From positions 28,947 through 92,946 of IMG/VR virus record IMGVR_UViG_3300028384_000675: 64,000 nucleotides of DNA, one strand, 5' to 3'. Shown here piece by piece: positions 775 through 30,900 of the stretch (position 1 is its first letter; each line of letters begins with the position of its first letter). The notes under the pieces are model-generated. The model worked only from the letters and a program-made list of their open reading frames with translations, was not told the DNA's origin and did not search any database. A program made the translations under genes and the position numbers. The DNA is from a virus.

Positions 775-1881
775 TTAGAGATCATATGGGTCGAACAGTT
801 GCCACGGTTCGTATTTCATCCTTTCTTGTTCTTCGATTTGCTGAATTGCGTCGCTACCGTCGTCAATAAAACCGAACGGAACGATGTCGTCTTCGATCTG
901 TCTCATCTGTTGTTCGAACATCATCTGCTTTAGGTTGATGTCTGTCATATCAGCGAACATCTGAGTTGTAATGAAGTACCCTAGCATCACGAGGTTCATC
1001 ATGAGGTCGTCGTGGTTTCCTTCGCTTGCTTCGTATGACACTCCTTTCGATACAAAGGTAGACACTTCCATGATCGTATCTTCGTCAACAATCTCAAGCT
1101 TTTTCTCTTCTAGCAAATCTTTAATACCCGAGCAACCGAGACGCTTGACCCTTCGTGTCATCTCAATACCAATAGCATTCGCTTTCACGGCAGACTCTAC
1201 GTGTACGTTCTCGTACTCCAGATCGTAGTACAGACCATTACAGACGACTGCGCCCTGATCGTTCGACTCAATTACGACGTATGCATTGTTGTATGCTTTC
1301 GCGATTTTATATATAATATCAGGGAAGAGTATTGGAGAAATAGTGTTGTTCCGATACGCAGCGACCTGACGAAACGGGCGTGTGGCAATGTCGATAACTG
1401 TAAAAGTCGAATAGTCCTGTCCTCTTCCTTTCGCTACGTCAACAGTCATGAGATATTCATGACTGGGTTGTGTTTCTTCGTATACGTTGAGGCAACCATT
1501 CTCCAATACTTTGATCGGTGGCAGTGCCCTAAGATTCAATAGAGTTTCTGCGCCGATCAAAGTATCCCCCGTTCCGAAGAACGTGTTGTGGGAAGTAAAC
1601 GATTTATCGTGATTATAAACTTTGCCGTTTTCTACATTCAGCGGGTCATAAAAATATTGCCCCTCGCAAACTTCCCTACGAACAACAACCTTTCCTATGT
1701 CATCTCCGGAGAAAATATCTTTGGCAAACTTGACTTGACTGGTAATAACAAATTTATGATTGATTGCGGTGCAAAGTTCAGTGCCGTCTTCGAATACAAA
1801 ACGAAACCCATAATCATGCCAATAACGATTTACACCATGAAATTTTTGAAATCCAGAAGGTGTTAAGATTTGTATATCGAT
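775..1881 (-). CDS. terL: Terminase large subunit C-terminal (nuclease) half, preceded by a C-intein; start codon uncertain
   Basis: The frame of ORF 775..1560 stays open up to a TAG at 1897-1899 and reads IDIQILTPSGFQKFHGVNR...CTAINHKF...FYDPLNVENGKVYNHDKSFTSHN|TFFGTGDTLIGAE.... It then contains RNase H-like terminase motifs (VDVAKGRGQDYST, IESNDQG, HDDLMMNLV). There is no ATG/GTG/TTG upstream of 1560; ATC at 1881 and ATA at 1875 follow GGAGAGG. Confidence 0.9.
   Translation of the reverse strand: MDIQILTPSGFQKFHGVNRYWHDYGFRFVFEDGTELCTAINHKFVITSQVKFAKDIFSGDDIGKVVVRREVCEGQYFYDPLNVENGKVYNHDKSFTSHNTFFGTGDTLIGAETLLNLRALPPIKVLENGCLNVYEETQPSHEYLMTVDVAKGRGQDYSTFTVIDIATRPFRQVAAYRNNTISPILFPDIIYKIAKAYNNAYVVIESNDQGAVVCNGLYYDLEYENVHVESAVKANAIGIEMTRRVKRLGCSGIKDLLEEKKLEIVDEDTIMEVSTFVSKGVSYEASEGNHDDLMMNLVMLGYFITTQMFADMTDINLKQMMFEQQMRQIEDDIVPFGFIDDGSDAIQQIEEQERMKYEPWQLFDPYDL
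1585..1881 (-). mobile_element. C-terminal fragment (IntC, ~97-99 aa) of a split intein in terL
   Basis: Block B-like TAINHKF, block F FYDPLNV and terminal SHN followed by Thr(+1). Resembles, from memory, the AceL-TerL type IntC. Confidence 0.88.
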
Positions 1882-2585
1882 GGGAGCCTCTCCGTTCTAG
1901 TTTTTCCAGACACTATATCTGCAATGCATTTCGCAGTAACATTATAATACTCGCAATATTTTCTGGCGAATGTAGAGTATGGAGTTATCGGTTTCCAACC
2001 AGAATTTTTCTTTCTTCTTTCTTCGTTAATCGGTATCAGTTCTTCTCTTATTTTATCTAGTTCTTTCGCAAAAGTATCTCTGATCTCATCAACTTGATTG
2101 TCTGTCAATTTTGGCGGTCTTAATCTTTTTCCTGATTTGGATTCTTTTTGTTTTTTAATATATTCTGGGTTTTTGTAATTTTCTTTACTTCTCTTTGACC
2201 TTATGTGAAATCCTTCTCTTTTTGCGCGTTTTTTTGCTGACTCAGACATTTTTTTTCTTTGTTCGTCAGAAAACTTATATCCCAATGTTGTGAAGTTAGG
2301 CGAGTTGTGCCCATACCCTTTACCAGAAGGAGATTCGTTCAACCCATTATTAAACGTATCAAGGGAATTAATCCAATACTCTTCTCTTCCTTCAATATAG
2401 TTTCGGTCGTTAGATTCTTCAAGTATTTGTACATCGAAATCGTCACCTTTAAAACGATTAGACCTTTTGTGATCGCCCATTCGAATCTTGAATCTACGTT
2501 GTATGGTAATCCCAACGTATTGCTTTGAGTCTGACTTCCTCTTCAAAAGATAAACCAAGTGTTTCTCTTGTTCTGATACAGTCAT
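1863..2585 (-). CDS. Free-standing GIY-YIG homing endonuclease (Seg-like) with NUMOD3 and a C-terminal HTH
   Basis: LVYLL...QYVGIT..RFKIRMGDH...GREEYWI...GLN catalytic core; GYKFSDEQRKKMSESAK (NUMOD3); KLTDNQVDEIR...NVTAKCIADIVSGKT (HTH). AT-rich and overlaps both terL halves. Confidence 0.88.
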   Translation of the reverse strand: MTVSEQEKHLVYLLKRKSDSKQYVGITIQRRFKIRMGDHKRSNRFKGDDFDVQILEESNDRNYIEGREEYWINSLDTFNNGLNESPSGKGYGHNSPNFTTLGYKFSDEQRKKMSESAKKRAKREGFHIRSKRSKENYKNPEYIKKQKESKSGKRLRPPKLTDNQVDEIRDTFAKELDKIREELIPINEERRKKNSGWKPITPYSTFARKYCEYYNVTAKCIADIVSGKTRTERLPSIYKS

Positions 2586-2658
2586 AAAAATCGCCTATTC
2601 TTATTTCGTATATAATATTATTTATAAGAACAGTTATTTGAGAACGACTTTCTAGGCA
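2494..2658 (-). mobile_element. N-terminal fragment (IntN) of the split intein: ~28-aa core plus a tail overlapping the endonuclease gene
   Basis: Cys1 codon at 2658-2656; block A-like CLESRSQITVLINNIIYEIRIGDFYD; stop at 2496-2494. Confidence 0.85.
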
Positions 2659-3447
2659 ATTACCAAATTCTTGGTCGAACTGTAATTGCGAAGTGTTTGA
2701 AATTGTTTGTCGTTTCCACTCCTCGTCTCGACCAGGAACGTCCCACCAATTTACCGTGAATGCTTTGTACTCATTAACCTTTTGTACAGCACCTTCCCAT
2801 ATTTTATGATAGGTGTTTCCGATACCATTCGCTGTAGATGTAATAATAACTTTCGTATCTTTACCAGATGAGATAACAGGATAGGTTGAAGTATAGAACT
2901 CAGCAGCACGCTCAACAAACGCAAACTCGTCCAGAAAAAGCAGGTTAACAGACATACCACGTATAGAAGAACCAGAGGTGGCAGCAGCAATAATGCGAGA
3001 ATTATTACTAAACTCAATTGAACCTTTATTAAGAGCGCGACACCCTGGCTGTAGAAAAAACGGTAAATTTTCAAGCGCCAAGGTGACTCTGGCGAGCATC
3101 TCTCGAGCGGTTGCACCTTTGTTAGCGAGGACAGCGATCGTCTTCTCAGGGTGAAATATAGCATACCATAATAGATAAACAACGGATGAAATAGACTTAC
3201 CACTTTGTCGACAGGCGAGGACGATCGAGAAACGATTATCATTAAAGTGGTCAAACATATTTTCTTGATATGGGTAAAGGTCAAAGTTGACAAGTCCTTT
3301 ATCGAGAGAAATGATTTTTACATATGTTCGTGCAAAATATGCAGGATCTTTCATACATTTAGCATACTCAACGACCTGTTCTTCAGTCCATTGTTGTTGT
3401 ACGCCATCCCGTTTTACATTAATATTACCAAGGTAACTATCATTCAT
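2494..3447 (-). CDS. terL: Terminase large subunit N-terminal (ATPase) half fused to an N-intein
   Basis: YLGNINVKR, LYPYQ adenine-binding motif, Walker A CRQSGKS and Walker B LLFLDEFAF. Ends QEFGN|CLESRSQITVL...IRIGDFYD. Likely start is the ATG at 3447, overlapping the terS stop. Confidence 0.95.
   Translation of the reverse strand: MNDSYLGNINVKRDGVQQQWTEEQVVEYAKCMKDPAYFARTYVKIISLDKGLVNFDLYPYQENMFDHFNDNRFSIVLACRQSGKSISSVVYLLWYAIFHPEKTIAVLANKGATAREMLARVTLALENLPFFLQPGCRALNKGSIEFSNNSRIIAAATSGSSIRGMSVNLLFLDEFAFVERAAEFYTSTYPVISSGKDTKVIITSTANGIGNTYHKIWEGAVQKVNEYKAFTVNWWDVPGRDEEWKRQTISNTSQLQFDQEFGNCLESRSQITVLINNIIYEIRIGDFYDCIRTRETLGLSFEEEVRLKAIRWDYHTT
2619..2626 (-). promoter_or_regulatory. Late promoter TATAAATA inside the IntN coding sequence, upstream of the endonuclease
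   Basis: Exact consensus about 34 nt before the ATG at 2585. Confidence 0.65.
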
Positions 3448-3796
3448 CCTGATCGCTAGCATCAATCACCTTCTCATCATTTTGTTGCAGTAGTCTCTGC
3501 AGGTCAGTGGTACTTCCTATGAAAACATTATTATTAGTGATTGCCTTTTGTTCTTCTTTCTTAGGATCGCTCATTATATCCATGTTCTTTTTATTTAGAT
3601 CCATCAGTTTGTCGGTCACATCAGCGATGTTCTTGATCATGCCGGATAGAACCTCGAACGCACGTGGGTGCTCGCTCTCGCGCGCGACCTCCATCATTAG
3701 GTCCATGCCACGTTTACCGTTCTCAATTAAATCAAGATATGTATCGCGAGAGGTTTCATAATCGTCTTTGATGTTTTTCTTATCTTGATCTGTCAT
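3440..3796 (-). CDS. terS: Terminase small subunit (gp16-like)
   Basis: DYETSRDTYLDLIENG...ARESEHPRAFEVL...DKLMDL...TNNNVFIGSTTDLQRLL is typical of marine T4-like gp16. Overlaps the terL start. Confidence 0.92.
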   Translation of the reverse strand: MTDQDKKNIKDDYETSRDTYLDLIENGKRGMDLMMEVARESEHPRAFEVLSGMIKNIADVTDKLMDLNKKNMDIMSDPKKEEQKAITNNNVFIGSTTDLQRLLQQNDEKVIDASDQDE

Positions 3797-6700
3797 ACTG
3801 GTTCTCCTCCTTCAAACGCTTCATATGCTTCAAGCAATACAAGCCAACTGTCGGAATTACTAGGGTTTGAAGTTTCGCGAATCTCAAACAAAATCTGCAG
3901 GTCTGCCATAAAATTGGGATCAGTAACTGTTATGGACCAAGTTCTGTTCTGATCCAGCGTTTCCCAACTGCCGAAACTTCCAGTAGCAACTCCGGAGTAA
4001 TAATTACGAGTCGCTTTGATTACATAATCTCCTGCACTCGTTGGCAGGTTAGTGGTTGGATCTAACCAAGTTCCAACTGTGTTTGTAACAAATTGATTGA
4101 ACGGGTTGGAACTCATAATATCACCATCAGGTTCGAACCTGACAGTTGTCGTTACTGACTGACTGTTTCCAGACGTAGTGATACCAAAAGGTTTGTTGGA
4201 TATCTCAACAATATCTGCTTGGGTTGTGTCATTAATATTAATTAATCGTGAAGCGAGTAGTGAACCGACATGAGAATCGTAAACACCGAACGTATAAACG
4301 TCATCTGATAGATCAGAATCTTCTGCTACGTCGACTCGAAATGTTCCTGAGTTTGAGGAGACGCTAAATGAACCTGATGCTTCATATATGTCATCAAAGT
4401 CTTCGAACACTTCAGGTTGCGCGAAGTGAAAATCGTATCCGACTGGTAATGAAGAAAGCGGAACTGCGTTACTCATAGTCACGCCAGATCCAGGAGATAT
4501 ACTCACGATAGTTCCAGGAACATCCGGAGTGTTAGACTCCATACCCAGCGCGAGGTTGGAAGTGTCTTCAAGATATATGAAGAATGTTCCTTGAGGAACG
4601 ACCTGATCTGTTCTGACCGGATATATGTTTGATGTACGATAATAATATGTGCCATCAGTAATATTTGTGCCGTCAAACGTAAAGTTAATCGTGTCACCTT
4701 CGTTGGCAGAATCATTAGCGAGGTCAGTCGATAAAGAATAAACGGATGCTTCGTCAGATAGAACAAAGGTATCTGATGCCAAAAACAATCCATTAGCACT
4801 ATCGAGTCTTAACGTCACTGTTCCTGTCAAATCTCCATGACCAATATCATCTGAGGTCGTAACGAACTGAGTAATAGTCGGTGTTGAATTTACAACAGCA
4901 GTTTTAGAAGTTATAGGGAACCTGCTTGTTATTCCAGCACTGCCAGTGATCGCAAAATGAACCGCTTCATTTTGTGCTCTATCTGCTATAGTGCTAATGG
5001 TGAACAGATTTCCCTCTGTCACATTGAACGCATCTGCAGTGTACGTCGGAATACTTGTGTCAAGGATTGTAATCGTTGGTGATTCAGCAAGCGCACCGCC
5101 TCCTGCTGTTTTAGAAACCAGAACTTTGTATGTCTCAGTACCTTCGCGGAGAAGATCTTCGTTCAGATCAGCAAAGATTGTACCATAACTTGTAGAAACG
5201 GTAAACGCTTGTTTTGCCGAAACAGGAGCGAACCCAGAAACGAAATCGTCGGAGGTTATATTGTCCCCTTGAAACCAGTAATAGTATGTTCCGTCGGAAT
5301 CGGTCGTATAGAACGAAACAGTCTGTACCACTTTCGATTCATTGATCTCTAGGTTGGCGCTGTCCAAACTTAATTGATACACGCGGTTTCCTGCGATGGT
5401 GTAGTCTAGCGTTGCGAGTTCAGTTCCGGTAGTTGTTTCTACCACTGCAGTAAATGTTTCTGGGTCGAGGTCACCGTTAGTCGCAAACTGAAGTAGCGGT
5501 GAAGGGGAACTGACGCCGCCTGACATGGTGATGGTGTCAGGAGAACCTGATTGCGGAACCGTTCCCACGAAATCTGCAGCAGAAGTTTCCCCAAAATTGA
5601 TATAAAAGTTCACATCTGAGTCAGGGATATTTGTACCGCCGATCTCATATGATACCGAATCGCCTTCGGTCGCAATCGCAAAAGAAGGCGTGATGGTATA
5701 AACAGGTGCCTGATCTAAAATATCAAAGGTATCGTTGGCAGTAAATCCTAGGTCAGAAGTAAACGAGACAGTTCCTGCCGTTGGACCTTGATATGTGAGT
5801 AGAGAAGTTGTGTTAGACAGAAAGTAAGTATCGTTGACACCCGTAACTGTAAACGAACCAGAAGAAGATAACAAGCGCGAATCTGAAGCAGCAGCGCCTG
5901 TAACGCTCCAGTTAACTGTGTCCCCGATTGTTGTCGAATCAACTGACAGTGAAGCGAGAAGCGGATTGCCTTCCACTGGATCGTCGACAGTCAGATCAAA
6001 CGTTGGAATTGTATCAGAAACAGTAATTAAAACAGAACCTTTCGCTATGCCGCCACTCGCTTCAGTTTGTAGTGAAACTGTAAAAGTTTCGTTATCGTCT
6101 ACAACATTGTCAACCATTGTTCTCAGCGAGAATGAACCGTTGCTGTTTAATATAGAAAACGGTTGCGCGGCAGTGGACATTGGCGGTGCAACTGTGAAGT
6201 CCGAGTCTGAGGTTGTACCATGCGTAACGTAATAGTACAACGTTGTGTTGCCGTTATTCGGTACGTCTGTTCCGGCAATATCAAATGTTATGATATCGCC
6301 CTCGCTTGGTGTAGCAGACGATGGTGTGATAACATATGAAGAAACAACATCGTTCAGATTAATTAATGACTGACCCTTTACACGTTCTTCGTCATCAATT
6401 ACAAATACATTGAACTGCTCAACGCCTTCTGCTTCATCAGAATCTGTTCTAGTTGGAATAGAAAACTTACCGACCGCAGTACCAGCACTGTCATTTATTT
6501 CAAAGTATGATGGCGACAATATGCTCGGCGGAGGCGATACGAAATCTGAGTCAGATGTAGAAATATGATCCACATAATAATAAAGCGCATCTGTATTATC
6601 TGGCACATCAGTTCCGCTCACTGTAAACTTAAATAATGTTCCCTCGTCTTCAGAGTCAGAGGGTGATACCCCTATAGAATATGATGAGGTAATCCTCTGA

Positions 6701-24010: not shown

Positions 24011-24937
24011 TTAGTCAATAATAGTGAATGTTCCACCCATATTTTGATGCAATTGGCACTTATACTCATAACTTACACCCGACACTGGGGTGAATGAGAC
24101 ACTACCAGTTTCCGTTGGATCAGCAATGAGGACATTATTATCGTCAACGATCATAAACGGATGACCAGAAGTGTTTACATTAAACGTATATTCTGTTCCA
24201 GAAGTAAGGTCTAGTGATGGAGCTTCCACACCATTCAAATAGAACTTACCGTTAGAAACTGTCACGTTAAATGTCGTAACTTCTGGTTCTGGATCAGGTG
24301 CCGATTCAACCGTAAAGTCAGAAGTCGTTGTCGTAGCATTACCATTCGCATCAGTCGCAGTAAATCTCATTGAGAACGAAGTCGCTTCACTTCCTGGTGT
24401 TACTGTGAATACATTATCAGACTGGGATACTGTAGCGCCGTTGAGTGCGGAAGAAGCAGAAATTGCAGTAACTGAAACACCGAATTGATCGCCCCCAGAA
24501 CCATCAAACGCAGTTAGTTTGGTTGGTTGAGCAGATAGATTGTTTGCGTCATAGACGTAGACTGAACCAGTGTAAGAATCGTCATAATACGCACCAACGA
24601 CGATCTTATCAGCAGTAGCAGCAACTGATATACCGAACTGATCGCTAGCAGCGCCATCAAACGCTGTTAGTTTAGTCGGTTGAGCAGATAGATTGTTGGC
24701 ATCATAGACATAAACTGAACCCTTAGTGTCGTCACCATATGCACCAACAACGATCTTATCACTAGAAGCAGCAACTGAGTGTCCAAAGAGATCATTCGCA
24801 GCACCATCAAATGCTGTTAGTTTCGTTGGTGTTGCAGATAGATTGTTGGCGTCAAAGACATAGACTGAACCAGATTGAGTTCCATTGTCATCGTCAGCTT
24901 GTGCGCCAACAATGATCTTGTCAGCAGTAGCAGCAAC
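24011..24937 (-). pseudogene. In-frame 3' remainder of the giant FG-GAP gene beyond TAG-TAA: last blades, half Ig domain and cupredoxin-like domain
   Basis: After FG-TAG-TAA the same frame continues VAATADKIIVGAQADDDNGTQSGSVYVFDANNL... without stops into ORF 24011..24370 (36406-24370 = 12036, divisible by 3). Confidence 0.85.
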
Positions 24938-24940
24938 TTA

Positions 24941-27900
24941 CTAACCGAAGGAATCAAAAGAAGCACCATCAAACGCAGTTAGTTTAGTCGGTTGAGCAGA
25001 TAGGTCATTGGCGTCATAAACATAGACTGAACCATTGAAATCGTCACCATTTGCACCAACGACGATCTTGTCGGAAGAAGTAGTAATTGAATATCCGAAT
25101 TTATCATTCGCAGCGCCATCAAATGCAGTTAGTTTAGTTGGTTGAGCGGATAGATTGTTGATGTCATAGACATAGACTGAACCAGTGTAAGAATCTTCGC
25201 CGTATGCACCAACAATGATCTTATCAGCAGCAGTAGCAATTGAGATGCCGAAGAAATCGCCCGCAGCACCATCAAATGCTGTTAGTTTAGTTGGTGTTGC
25301 AGATAAATTATTGGCGTCATAGACGTAGACTGAACCAGACTGAGATCCATTGTCATCATCTAGGCGTGCACCAACAATAATCTTATCAGCAGTAGCAAAA
25401 ACATTCTCTCCGAAGCAATCACCTGCAGCAGCATCAAACGCTGTTAGTTTCGTTGGTGTTGCAGACAGATTGTTGGCGTCATAGACATACACTGAACCGG
25501 AACTAGATCCATTGTCGCCGTCACCCCATGCACCAACAACGACATAACTTGATCCTGACGCTACTTCCTCATAAGACCATGTAATCGCATCGCCTTCTGG
25601 ATCAGTACCAACTGCAGTAATTGCTGTTCCGCTTCCACCTGCTGTCAGCAGATATGAAGACTCAATACCAGTCACCGATGGTGCTTGGTTGACATATGTA
25701 AAGTCAAAGTCAGATGACACTGACGTTACATTACCTTCTGAGTCAGTCGCCTTAAAGGTCAACTGGAAGTCAGCGTCCTGTTGACCAGGAGTTACTGTGA
25801 ACACGTTATCAGATTGCGCAACGGTTACATCACCGAGTGGACTAGGTGCAACAGATCCAACTGCGTTAAATCCAAAGCTAATGCTAGTACCAGTTCCCGC
25901 AGGTGGATTTACTAATTCTGGTGCTGCCGATAAATCGCTCAGGATGTAAACATACATACCACCAGTACTCGCGTCTTTTCTGTGAGCAGAAGAATATAAC
26001 TTATCGCCAATTATGGTTGTGTTATATCCTAGCATTGCACCTGTTGCTGGAGATTCCAATACTGTCGGAGCAGCAGAAAGGTTGTTTATGTTATAAACAT
26101 AAATAGCACCTGCTGATGAGTTTCTTTGGTGTGCCCCGACGAAAAGTTTATCTTCGTGTGGAAGAACAGACATACCAAAGTAATCTCCTTCAGCAGCATC
26201 GAATGCTACAAGTTTCTCAACAAAGGATAAGTCGCTTTCGTTGTACACGTATACAGCACCACCACTAGTACCGTTCGAATTATGGTCCGCAGTCACAGCA
26301 GAAATATAGATCTTACCCCCATAAGTTTTTATTGAGTATCCGCCAAATCTGTCAGACTCAGACGCATCTGGCGCAGTTAATTTCTGTACGAATGCATAAG
26401 TATTGACATCGTAAACATAAACTGCTCCAGCATCAGTACTATTGTCGTCGTCTCCCATCGATCCAATCAAGATATGATTAGATGTTACTGTTATACCTCC
26501 GCCAAGTCCAAAATAGTCGCGATGATCGCCGTTGGTAGGAGTTAATGTTGCCTGAAGCGAAAGGTCAGATTTGTTGTAGATATAGACTTTTCCGGTATAA
26601 TCATCATTACTGTTCGTTGTTGGTCCCCATCCATATGCTCCAATGATCAATAAGTCGTCAGTGACGGAAATTCCGCTTCCGAATCGAAGGTTATTCTGCG
26701 CTTCGCCAGTAAGCATGGTCGGCGCGGCAGAAAGGTCGCTTCTATCGTAAATATAAACCGCTCCGCCCCAGGTTTCATCCGATTCATCTGACATCATCTC
26801 ACCTATGTAGATTTTGTCGGAATCAATTTCCATTGAAAATCCAAATCGTTCTGCTGATGAACCGTTCGGCGCAGTAAGCAATGTTGGTTCCTCTGTCAAA
26901 TCAGTTGGATTATATACATACACATAACCCTGATAACTATTAGATTGTATCGCAGAAACAAATAACTGATCTTGTGACGTGGATGACACTGCCTCATACG
27001 ACCATGTAACCGTGTCACCTTCTGGGTCAGTTGCCGCAGCAGTGATCACAGTGCCCTGACCTTGAGTCAGAGTATATGTTGAGTCAATACCAGTCACCGA
27101 TGGTGCTTGGTTAACATAGGTCAACGAGAAGTCTGCATCTCTGGTATCCGTATTTCCTGCTGTATCAGTGAGGGTGAATCGTATCGTGAAGTTTGCATCA
27201 GCAGTTCCTGGTGTTACTGTGAATTCGCCGCCATTTTGCGTTATAGCAGTTCCGTTCAAACCAGAAGGAACGCCTCCGTTCAAGACTTCTGCAAACGACC
27301 AAGTAACAGCGTCGCCGTCAGCGTCAGATGACATACCAACGATCACCTCGTCTACACCCTGAGTCAGCGTATACACAGATTCAATACCTGTGATCACTGG
27401 CGCAGCATTATAGTCAAAGGTGATGTCAGAGGTCGCAGTAGTCGCTGCACCGTTTGTATCAGTTGCCGTAAAGGTCAACTGGAAGGTAGCATCTTGATCC
27501 CCAGGAGTGATTGTGAACACGTTACCCGCCTGAGTTACTGTTGTACCTGAAAGGTCGCCAGAAGTTACTGCGTAAGTCAACGAAACAGTATCACCGTCAG
27601 AGTCTGAAGTTGTTACTGTGATCTCAGTATCTTGACCTTGATCCAGCGTATACGAAGAATCAACGCCAGTTATTGATGGCGCGTCATTATAGTCTAGTGT
27701 AAACTCAGAATCGAAGTTTGTCTGGTTTCCTGACTCATCAGTTGCAGTAAAGCGCAACGTGAAGTTAGCATCCTGTTGTCCAGGAGTTACTGTGAAGTCA
27801 TTACCGTTCTGCGTTACAGTAGTTCCGTTCATACCAGAAGGAACACCCTCGCCTAGAACTTCTTCGTAACTCATAGTAACTGTTTCGCCTTCGGCATCAG

Positions 27901-30900
27901 ATACTACAGGAACGATTACTTCGTTAACGCCCTGAGTCAATGTATACGCAGGTTCAATACCGCCGAGTGACGGTGCTTGATTCACGTATGTAAAGTCAAA
28001 GTCAGATGTTGTAGAAGTCACATTACCGTTTGAGTCAGTCGCCTTAAAGGTCAACTGGAAAGTAGCATCCTGTTGTGCAGGTGTTACTGTGAAGACATTG
28101 TCAGATTGTGTTACAGTGACACCGTTGAGTTGCGAAGATAGATTATTTGCAGAAACTGAATAACCGAAATAATCTGCTCCTGCGCCATCATATGCTGTTA
28201 GTCTGGTCGGTTGAGCAGAGAGATCATTTATATCATAGACATAAACTACTCCAGTATATGTACTACCAGGACCGCCGTATGCTCCGACAATGATTTGTTC
28301 AGACGTTACCGCAAGACCAGTGCCGAACATATCAGTCGCAGCACCATCAAACGCTGTTAGTTTCGTTGGTTGAGCAGACAGATCGTTTGCGTCAAAGACA
28401 TAAACTGATCCAGATTGCGCCCCTCGGTCATCATCAGCATATGCGCTCACAACTACCTTATCAGAACTTATAGCAACGTGTTGCCCGAACATATCGCTCG
28501 TTGCCCCATCGTATGCTGTTAGTTTCGTTGGTGTCGCAGAAAGATCGTTCGCGTCATAGACATAGGCAGTGCCTGTATTGCTATTATCGCCCCTCGCTCC
28601 GATAACGACCTGACTAGAGGATGCTTCGATTGATATTCCAAACATTTGGTTTTCTGAAGCATCCGGAGATACCAACTTAGTTGGTTGAACAGAAAGGTCT
28701 GACTTATCGAAAACGTATACCGCTCCAGAATTATTTCCGTGATCGTCATCAAACGATCCGACTAATATCTTATCAGCAGTCGTAGCGAATCGATATCCGA
28801 AGTTATCACTCACAGCGCCATCATATGCTGTCAACTTAGTTGGTTGTGCATTAAGGTTATTTATGTCAAAGACATAAACTGCACCGGCATAAGTTGCCTC
28901 TTGATCATCCCAAGAATTTCCGACAATAATTTGATCTTCGGTAACTAGAACACGTTCTCCGAACCTTTTATCTCCTGCTTGATTATGCATATCATATGCT
29001 GTCAGTTTTGTTGGAGTAGCAGAAAGGTTGTTCAAATCGTACACGTAAACTGAACCAGAGTTAGGTTGCCCATCATCATCACCATATGATGTTACAGCTA
29101 ATATATTAGAATTTAAAGAAGAATGCCTGCCGAAGGAATCACCCGCAGCACCATCAAACGCAGTTAGTTTCGTTGGTTGGGCAGATAGATTATTCGCGTC
29201 AAAGACATAAACTGAACCAGAATTAGACCCGTTGTCATCGTCTCCTGCTGCTGACACAACCACATAATTCGTACCAGAGATTACTTCCTCATAACTCCAT
29301 GCGATCGCATCACCTTCTGGATCAGTTCCGACTGCAGTGATCACAGTGTCCTGACCTTGAGTCAACGTGTAAGCAGACTGGATTCCAGTCACCGATGGCG
29401 CTTGGTTGACGTAAGTAAAGTCAAAGTCAGAAGTTGCTGAAGTTGCGTTACCTTCTGAGTCAGTCGCAGTAATGCGTAACTGGAAGTCAGCATCAGCAGT
29501 TCCTGGCGTTACTGTAAACACGTTATCAGATTGTGTTACAGTGACACCGTTGAGTTGTGAAGGAGCAGAAACTGCAGCGACTGCCCAACCGAAACGATCG
29601 TCGTAAGCAGCATCAAATGCGAACAACTTAGTTGGTGCTGCTGATAGATCGTTTCTATCATAAACCCATACTGACCCATTTCTGCCATCGTCCATATTGG
29701 CGCCAATTACAATACTGTCTTCATTTATAGAGATATCTTGTCCGAAGTATTCGGATTCAGTATCGCCATCATCAGGTGCCGTGAGTTTTGTTGGAGCAGC
29801 AGAAAGATCGCTAGTATCATAGACATAAACTGCGCCTTGATAAGCATTACCATTTTCTGATTTTCTTTCTGCACCAACTACAAGAGACCCATGACGTGCA
29901 TCGACCCGCTCTCCAAAGTAACTATTTGACGTTAAATCTGACTCAGTAATAATTGTTGGCGCTGCTGATAGATCACTCAGAGCGTAAGCAAAGACTGCAC
30001 CTTTTCTACCATTATATCCCATGGCACCAACGTAAAGATTAGTGTCATCAGAAGCGAGGTAACAACCTAACTGTAAGTAATCTGTACCATCTTCGAGTTT
30101 TGTTGGTGCTGCTGATAGATCGCTCAGAGAATATACATAAACTGCTCCGTGATTATAAGAACCATGTTGTCGGCAACCAACATAAACATTATTGCTGTCT
30201 ATGTGTACAGCTCTTCCAAATTGATCAGAACTACCGCCATCAGGTGTAACCAACTTGGTAGGAGTTGCACCTAAATTAGAAGCGTCATAGACATAAACTG
30301 CACCGGCATTAGTCGTTTTTGTATCGTCGTTGATTGCAGAGACTACTACATGCGTTTCAGTTGCTGAAATTGCCCAACCCACATTGTCAGACGCAGTTGA
30401 TGGTGATAGTATTGTTGGTGCTGCTGATAGATCGCTTAAATCATAGACGTAGGCGCTACCAAAATTGTTCCCTCCGGTGTCATCGGAATAAGCACCAACG
30501 TAAAGTTTAGTGCTAGTCATAAACATACTCGCACCATAATTGCCGGAAACTGGTGATAATTTAGTTGGTCGAACAGATAAATTGTTAGCATCATAGACAT
30601 AAACTGAACCAGAGTTAGTTCCGTGAACGTCATCGAGCGGTGCACCAACAGCAATATAACTTGATCCAGACTTAACTTCTTCGAACGACCATGTAATCGC
30701 GTCACCTTCTGGATCAGTTGCCGCAGCAGTGATCACAGTATCCTGACCTTGAGTCAGCGTGTAAGCAGACTGGATTCCAGTGACGGTTGGCGCTTGGTTG
30801 ACATAGTCGAAGTTGACCGTTGCTGGTACAGTTGCCGTGTTACCGTTTGAGTCAGTCGCCTTGATGTTCAATGTAAACGAAGCATCCTGAGTTCCTGGCG

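Follow-up and report, generated by a model that had tools for sequence, protein, structure and literature searches.

Fractured genes, in which a split intein and a free-standing GIY-YIG or Vsr-like homing endonuclease gene (HEG) lie between the two halves of a host gene, were described by Dassa, London, Stoddard and Pietrokovski in 2009 (PMC2677866), who reported that the end of the HEG and the start of the C-terminal intein half (IntC) overlap by 6-69 bp in 15 fractured loci and proposed that the 3′ end of the HEG supplies the downstream start. Here we describe a locus of this kind in a 64,000-nucleotide (nt) stretch of viral DNA (the window; positions 28,947 to 92,946 of IMG/VR record IMGVR_UViG_3300028384_000675), part of a 92.9-kb contig that represents about 52% of the genome of a T4-like myovirus. 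Its gp17 locus, for the large terminase subunit (TerL), reads as a fractured gene composed of TerL(N) joined to the N-terminal intein half (TerL(N)-IntN), a free-standing HEG, and IntC-TerL(C). No ATG, GTG or TTG precedes IntC, this state is conserved in other assemblies, and we argue below that translation of IntC-TerL(C) probably begins at an AUC or AUA codon behind a Shine-Dalgarno (SD)-like sequence.

The window resembles the fractured genes of Dassa and colleagues, including the Lake Gatun gp17 gene, in the split intein with an HEG between the halves, in the TATAAATA box before the HEG and, as regards the Lake Gatun terminase intein, in a split after block A that leaves a long IntC (PMC2677866). 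In their model, however, the HEG 3′ end provides an initiator Met codon, whereas in the window there is no ATG, GTG or TTG, the codon at the position of the old ATG is TGG, and the former extension is closed by stop codons. The intein appears to be an atypical split intein of the AceL/GOS/Cat-TerL type, in which IntN is short and IntC long, and for which trans-splicing is predicted; we make this assignment, and that of the fractured gene, because IntC shows homology to CatC, an engineered consensus intein (PDB 6DSL chain B; E 1.3e-11, residues 5-93). AceL-TerL, GOS-TerL and Cat-TerL have an IntN of 25-37 amino acids (aa), an IntC of 104-115 aa and Cys at +1 (PMC11766414), compared with a core of ~27 aa, an IntC of 97-99 aa, Cys1, Asn at -1, a ..SHN terminus, Thr+1 and a non-canonical start in the window. 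The +1 residue varies more widely, being Thr in the window, Ser in some relatives and Cys in the cultured-phage and characterised TerL split inteins.

Sister elements in six lineages (L020, L026, L060, L075, L055 and L017; proteins P0007-P0023) have a homologous IntN, an HEG of 41-58% and an IntC of 38-60% identity, and the same insertion site, QEFGN|TFFG; all carry an ATG 13, 11, 8 or 2 codons before the ILTPSGF strand near the beginning of IntC, whereas the window has none. Among cultured phages, Yersinia MHG19, Serratia 92A1, Providencia PSTRCR_127, Vibrio EniLVp02 and K469, and Aeromonas PX29 share the gp17 split site and the gene order, and in MHG19, 92A1 and PSTRCR_127 the middle open reading frame (ORF) overlaps the IntC start by 14 nt. 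Their IntC is ~25% identical to that of the window and is followed by Cys+1, their middle ORFs are unrelated or remote, and their IntC start is a canonical ATG except in PX29, where the HEG is fused in frame and only an ATT lies near the IntC start. Parallels for the start codon itself are the AUU of infC and an AUA mutant of T4 rIIB, both AUH codons (AUA, AUC or AUU) that initiate behind an SD in the account given in PMC5499595, as proposed for the window; those starts were shown experimentally, whereas the one considered here is inferred, is located within another gene and belongs to one half of an essential split protein.

A conserved junction without a canonical start codon

On the minus strand, to which the coordinates of the locus refer, the IntC frame is closed upstream by a TAG (1897-1899) and is open from 1896. 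Between this TAG and the TTG at 1558-1560, the first canonical start of the frame, there is no ATG, GTG or TTG, and TTG 1560 lies eight codons inside the C-extein, past the end of the intein (..SHN|TFFG, Thr codon 1584-1582). The original prediction had claimed that no canonical start precedes 1560, and on rechecking the minus strand this claim and all of its coordinates hold. The IntC frame is -1 relative to that of the HEG (1863-2585, 240 aa), which runs from ATG 2585 to the TAA at 1865-1863. Upstream of TTG 1560 the only AUH candidates are ATC 1881 (1879-1881; codon -4 relative to ILTPSGF), ATA 1875 (1873-1875; codon -2) and ATC 1869 (1867-1869), the first codon of the ILTPSGF strand and the one nearest to the HEG stop (overlap AUCUUAA). 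The HEG stop thus follows the three codons by 1-13 nt, and initiation at them would give HEG/IntC overlaps of 19, 13 or 7 nt, respectively. An SD-like GGAGAGG (1887-1893) stands 11 nt before ATA 1875, with its GAGG 5 nt before ATC 1881.

This arrangement has consequences for annotation. With the full start list of NCBI table 11 the ORF is called from ATC 1881 and encodes 368 aa, but the public gene call of the contig begins at CTG 1641 (P0031, 288 aa), which cuts off the intein and leaves a product that resembles a truncated terminase. Callers that use TTG 1560 also lose IntC, because that codon lies within the C-extein.

The start-less state is real and conserved, the junction being free of indels in six other metagenome contigs. 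The same element is found in IMG/VR contigs of other samples, two of them ~99% identical (L005, L006) and two about 86-89% identical (L007, L008), and a metagenome scan with a lineage-specific pattern returned two contigs, one new and the other a duplicate of L008. In an ENA contig (L092) the junction is identical, so that the 40 nt from 1892 to 1853 are the same as in the window in five other metagenome assemblies (L005, L006, L007, L008 and L092). Alignment of the window with L008 from 3486 to 831 contains zero indels, and contigs of four further public runs, from three studies and including two metatranscriptome libraries, show no indel or joint over 1500-2700. The only junction variants in the public runs are 1893 G>T (the L007 type) and 1886 C>A, neither of which makes a start. 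In L007 and L008 a TGA at 1893-1891 takes the place of the TAG and further TGAs lie upstream, so that the frame opens even later, and the lineages with this junction include one whose TerL exteins are only 71-79% identical to those of the window.

Because the junction recurs without an indel in other assemblies and runs, an assembly or sequencing error is ruled out. The original prediction had allowed that reads or homologous loci might reveal an indel, a substitution or an ATG at this position; the state is kept in all of these contigs, none of which has an ATG there. A homopolymer indel at the A5 run (1905-1901) was rejected separately, as one additional A leads to the TAG and one fewer to the third frame, and neither fuses the ORFs.

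Purifying selection in the IntC frame

Neither the window nor L008 has a canonical start, and in both a TGG replaces the ATG of relatives; for this reason the divergence between them has been filtered by selection after the start was lost. Over the IntC codons from 1860 to 1585 the two differ by 33.8 synonymous and 13.2 non-synonymous differences, a ratio of non-synonymous to synonymous change (pN/pS) of 0.10, while the same DNA read in the two other frames gives 1.4 and 2.5. Purifying selection of this strength indicates that IntC is translated in exactly this frame, and it speaks against the outcome, envisaged in the original prediction, that no product containing IntC is made. The pN/pS of the HEG in the same comparison is 0.14. 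The nucleotide identity of the two exteins is 79% and 71%, and that of IntN is 96%.

How related lineages start IntC

A degenerate DNA pattern for ILTPSGFQxF recovered 75 IMG/VR loci, among which the lineage of the window alone has no canonical start upstream of the motif; all other real IntC loci have an ATG, GTG or TTG 2-30 codons before the ILTPSGF strand, or carry a contiguous intein (L081 and L048). A homologous HEG of 41-86% identity occupies the same place behind a homologous IntN in seven lineages (L007, L017, L020, L026, L055, L060 and L075), and it ends at the same TAA inside ATCTTAACA in six of them, ending 9 nt earlier in L060. The IntC start of these elements is an ATG at codon -13 in L020 and L060, at codons -13 and -2 in L075, at -11 in L026, at -8 in L017 and at -2 in L055, with no canonical start in L007 or the window. 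In the codon alignment the window has TGG opposite the ATG of L020, and the TAG that closes the frame stands opposite an ACG of L020; the latter change is synonymous when read in the HEG frame.

The candidate codons of the window have counterparts among these natural starts. Codon -2 is ATG in six lineages (L022, L029, L043, L055, L075 and L078), and the MKMK group (P0009, P0010 and P0016) has ATG at both -4 and -2. In a further group (L038, L041, L049 and L072) a TTG at codon -2 is the only canonical IntC start and lies 11 nt behind AAGGAG, the same SD spacing as for ATA 1875 in the window. Because codons -2 and -4 are ATG or TTG in sister lineages, natural IntC proteins begin at the positions homologous to ATA 1875 and ATC 1881.

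The L038 group, whose protein P0024 is found on 16 contigs, has in addition lost the body of the HEG. A 333-aa TerL(N)-IntN ORF there continues into the final eight codons of the HEG (..LPSICKS) and terminates at its former TAA; the junction lies at about 1426-1470 of L038 (minus strand), and the result is a HEG-less split intein. The contiguous inteins of L081 (minus strand, 2068-4100) and L048 (minus strand, 3889-6050) occupy the same QEFGN|T site and are versions of this intein that lack an HEG. The linker of L048 is homologous to the IntN tail of the window (..EEIRLKAI.W..), which suggests that an in-frame deletion of the HEG re-fused this intein.

Probable initiation at AUC or AUA behind a Shine-Dalgarno-like sequence

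Pairing with the anti-SD is computed at -6.6 kcal/mol for ATC 1881 and at -5.8 kcal/mol for ATA 1875, compared with a reference median of -4.1 kcal/mol over 28 long ORFs of the phage, taken at their first ATG, and the value for ATC 1881 falls within the top 2.4% of all coding-strand positions. ATC 1869, at +0.3 kcal/mol, has no SD at a usable distance and could serve by reinitiation only. The SD of the HEG itself is weak (-2.8 kcal/mol). Sister lineages with an upstream ATG have no SD at the site (ACACACG, ACAAAAG and ACACAGA), and a purine-rich SD is found there in L007 (TGAGAGG) and L038 (AAGGAG).

Our favoured explanation is the following. An ancestral IntC ATG, 13 codons before ILTPSGF as in L020, would have been lost, and stop codons would have closed that extension. 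Initiator tRNA would then start IntC-TerL(C), with formylmethionine, at AUC 1881 or AUA 1875 behind GGAGAGG, that is, within the HEG's final 19 or 13 nt, and ribosomes would either load directly or arrive from termination at the HEG stop, 10-16 nt downstream. TerL(N)-IntN and IntC-TerL(C) would be made as separate polypeptides and joined by trans-splicing. The terminase acts catalytically and small amounts of it suffice; the low output expected of a weak start would thus be tolerable for a packaging enzyme.

Such starts are feasible, judging from the studies cited in PMC5499595: translation of T4 rIIB fell to about 15% when its AUG was mutated to AUA, and in E. coli the yield of a phage hydrolase was 7.5% of the AUG level from AUA and 5% from AUU or AUC. 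In an optimised in-vitro system an AUA mRNA performed about as well as an AUG mRNA (PMC5499595). We put the probability of SD-directed initiation at AUC 1881 or AUA 1875, with coupling to the HEG as a possible helper, at roughly 0.65. As for the two codons, SD spacing favours AUC 1881 and homology with the ATG and TTG starts favours AUA 1875, which leaves both as candidates.

Several considerations weigh against this explanation. L020, too, has ATC at -4 and ATA at -2, as ordinary Ile codons behind an upstream ATG, so both codons of the window are inherited and give no evidence of selection. The correlation between a missing upstream ATG and an SD at the site comes from two or three lineages that are perhaps not independent of one another. 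One A-to-G change would be enough to restore ATG at -2, at the cost of only a Tyr-to-Cys replacement in the HEG tail, one that is tolerated in L075, but it is seen in no sampled strain, and its absence is unexplained if a stronger start were advantageous. The start codon itself is one that we infer. Finally, AUH starts can be very weak, ATT having about 0.3% of the activity of ATG (Hecht 2017, as cited in PMC10666635).

Alternative routes to IntC-TerL(C)

Pure termination-reinitiation is the alternative that survives best, and we consider it rather unlikely as the sole route. In this scenario ribosomes that finish the HEG at UAA 1865-1863 would restart at AUC 1869, AUA 1875 or AUC 1881, and the output of TerL(C) would depend on translation of the HEG. 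The proximity of the HEG stop to all three AUH codons is what such a mechanism would use, HEG/IntC overlaps are the rule in fractured genes (PMC2677866), and reinitiation is short-range in the scanning model of Adhin and van Duin, as summarised in PMC10666635. Moreover, although the L038 lineage has lost the HEG body, its upstream ORF continues to use this TAA as its stop. Overlaps of 7-19 nt nevertheless exceed those of -1/-4 nt that couple best (PMC10666635), and the junction has a strong SD of its own, for which coupling alone would have no use. The L038 lineage dispenses with the HEG body, the SD of the HEG is weak, and HEGs of T4-like phages are usually poorly translated.

The original prediction had suggested that coupling would make terminase expression depend on translating the selfish gene. 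Because the junction has its own SD, the SD of the HEG is weak and the L038 group keeps the initiation region without the HEG body, strict dependence is weakened; coupling as such fits the shared TAA, and reinitiation by ribosomes leaving the HEG is a plausible contribution to initiation at AUC 1881 or AUA 1875. There is only an outside chance that the HEG is an obligatory translational leader, such that useful amounts of IntC-TerL(C) would be made only by reinitiation after the HEG or another ORF ending at this TAA. If this were the case, loss of HEG translation would cost the phage its terminase, giving the element an addiction-like hold that is distinct from homing.

A -1 frameshift near the end of the HEG, with a P-site slip on C_CCA (1884-1881), would produce a HEG-IntC-TerL(C) fusion with the junction ..ERLP-IDIQILTPSGFQK, which would then take part in trans-splicing. 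The relation of the frames permits this, as IntC is -1 to the HEG and a slip anywhere between 1890 and 1866 would join the two, and a natural fusion exists in Aeromonas phage PX29 and its relatives, in which a GIY-YIG HEG is in frame with IntC-TerL(C) and annotated as gene 17B. The PX29 HEG is, however, only remotely similar to that of the window, and a fused form of the window's HEG family (at least 421 aa) was found nowhere in a collection of 5.8 billion proteins, which is weak evidence. There is no X_XXY_YYZ heptamer in the HEG frame over 1896-1866, where the single-tRNA site C_CCA is the only conceivable slip site, and L020 has the same C_CCA yet a normal ATG. RNA folds of 1935-1835 and 1900-1800 are no better than shuffles (z 0.52 and 0.38). 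The SD also stands only 3 nt from C_CCA; an SD 10-14 nt from the slip site stimulates -1 shifts, and 3 nt is the +1 geometry of prfB. Without heptamer, fold or fused form, we regard a frameshift as quite improbable, and of the mechanisms put forward in the original prediction it is initiation at AUC or AUA behind the SD that fits the comparative data best.

PX29 (L002) merits a separate remark. Around the IntC boundary of its gene 17B (2299-4098; junction about 2985-3010) the stretch from about 2950 to 3040 contains no ATG, GTG or TTG, and codon -2 is an ATT that lies 4 nt after GAGAG. PX29 may also use an internal AUH start.

It is very improbable that the C-terminal half is not properly expressed, whether as a decaying allele helped by co-infecting phages or with TerL(C) made from TTG 1560 and left unspliced without IntC. 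TTG 1560 is indeed preceded by an SD-like GGGGGA (-8.6 kcal/mol), TerL alleles without an intein are found in the same samples, and with about half of the genome in the contig a second TerL could lie elsewhere. Yet the 92.9 kb contain a single TerL match, a start at TTG 1560 would drop the conserved TFFGTGDT and leave IntN and IntC without a purpose, selection on IntC in its own frame has stayed strongly purifying since the start was lost, and the state is common to lineages of 71-79% extein identity in many samples.

Read-through of TAG 1899 from an in-frame ATG at 1929 is excluded because in L007 and L008, which carry two TGA codons there instead, the frame opens later, behind TGAs; the absence of tRNA genes from the whole 92.9-kb contig also counts against it. 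RNA-level repair or splicing was rejected on the contigs of the two metatranscriptome libraries, which are colinear with the DNA and show no joint, and this is weak evidence because the contigs may contain DNA.

Organisation of the locus, mobility and other features

The order of genes around the element is that of gp16, gp17 and gp18 in T4-like phages. A gp16-like small terminase subunit (3440-3796, 118 aa; Pfam DNA_Packaging, E 2.9e-4) is followed by the N-extein with the ATPase part of TerL (2659-3447, from ATG 3447 to ..QEFGN; Pfam Terminase_6N, E 1.8e-19) and by IntN (2494-2658), which begins with Cys1 at 2658-2656, consists of the ~27-aa core and a tail that runs to TAG 2496-2494, and totals 54 aa. 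The pattern CL..S.IT...IGDLY.C in IntN is common to seven related lineages, and the final 92 nt of IntN overlap the start of the GIY-YIG HEG (Pfam GIY-YIG, E 4.6e-7). IntC (1585-1881) ends in ..TSHN and is 97-99 aa long depending on the start used, 99 aa from ATC 1881. The C-extein with the nuclease part (775-1584; Pfam Terminase_6C, E 1.9e-18) starts with TFFGTGDT, stops at TAA 777-775, shares 66% identity with the TerL of phage C48C1 and is followed by the sheath gene. The intein junction, Asn(-1)/Cys1 ... His-Asn/Thr(+1), lies at 2656-2661 and 1582-1584. Megablast of the locus against phage records gave no match. The phage is of marine origin: runs of 13 studies contain the stretch, with marine or seawater labels where most of it is present.

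The element bears marks of mobility. Between the window and L008, IntN and the two zones of HEG/intein overlap (2450-2720 and 1820-1910) are 88-98% identical, compared with 60-80% for the exteins, which is consistent with lateral movement of the element. Intein-less TerL alleles, in which the N-extein is joined directly to TFFGTG, are present in the same samples (loose ends at 2659/2660, runs X5 and X9). These alleles potentially represent homing targets that coexist with the fractured allele, and the picture fits a mobile element.

A T4-type late-promoter-like box, TATAAATA, lies inside IntN at 2619-2626 (minus strand), 34 nt before the HEG ATG. The window contains 13 copies of it, all on the minus (coding) strand, against 2.3 expected, and the copy in IntN is conserved in position in L007, L017, L020, L060 and L075. 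If it acts as a promoter, this box could give a late transcript of HEG-IntC-TerL(C).

Elsewhere in the window (24011-24943, minus strand) tandem in-frame stops, TAG TAA (24943-24938), fall in the middle of a repeat unit of a giant repeat protein of 3839 aa. Past these stops the repeat goes on in frame for 308 aa, the first 40% of which has no ATG, GTG or TTG; the final segment carries a cupredoxin-like C..H..M motif.

Implications

Fractured TerL genes were already known, and the locus reveals no new kind of system; what is new is that one half of an essential split gene has a non-canonical start and that this start is conserved. In a widespread lineage of marine phages, standard gene callers fail to see half of an essential enzyme. 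As the public call at CTG 1641 loses the intein, fractured genes of this sort can be expected to appear in annotations as truncated terminases. The locus would also provide a natural, population-tested case of an AUC or AUA start on an essential gene, for which the ATG and TTG of the sister lineages at the homologous codon form a ready allelic series to ask how low start-codon strength can go. More broadly, it would extend the model of Dassa and colleagues from 2009, in that homing endonucleases may become entangled with the expression of their host genes by supplying stops, promoters and starts.

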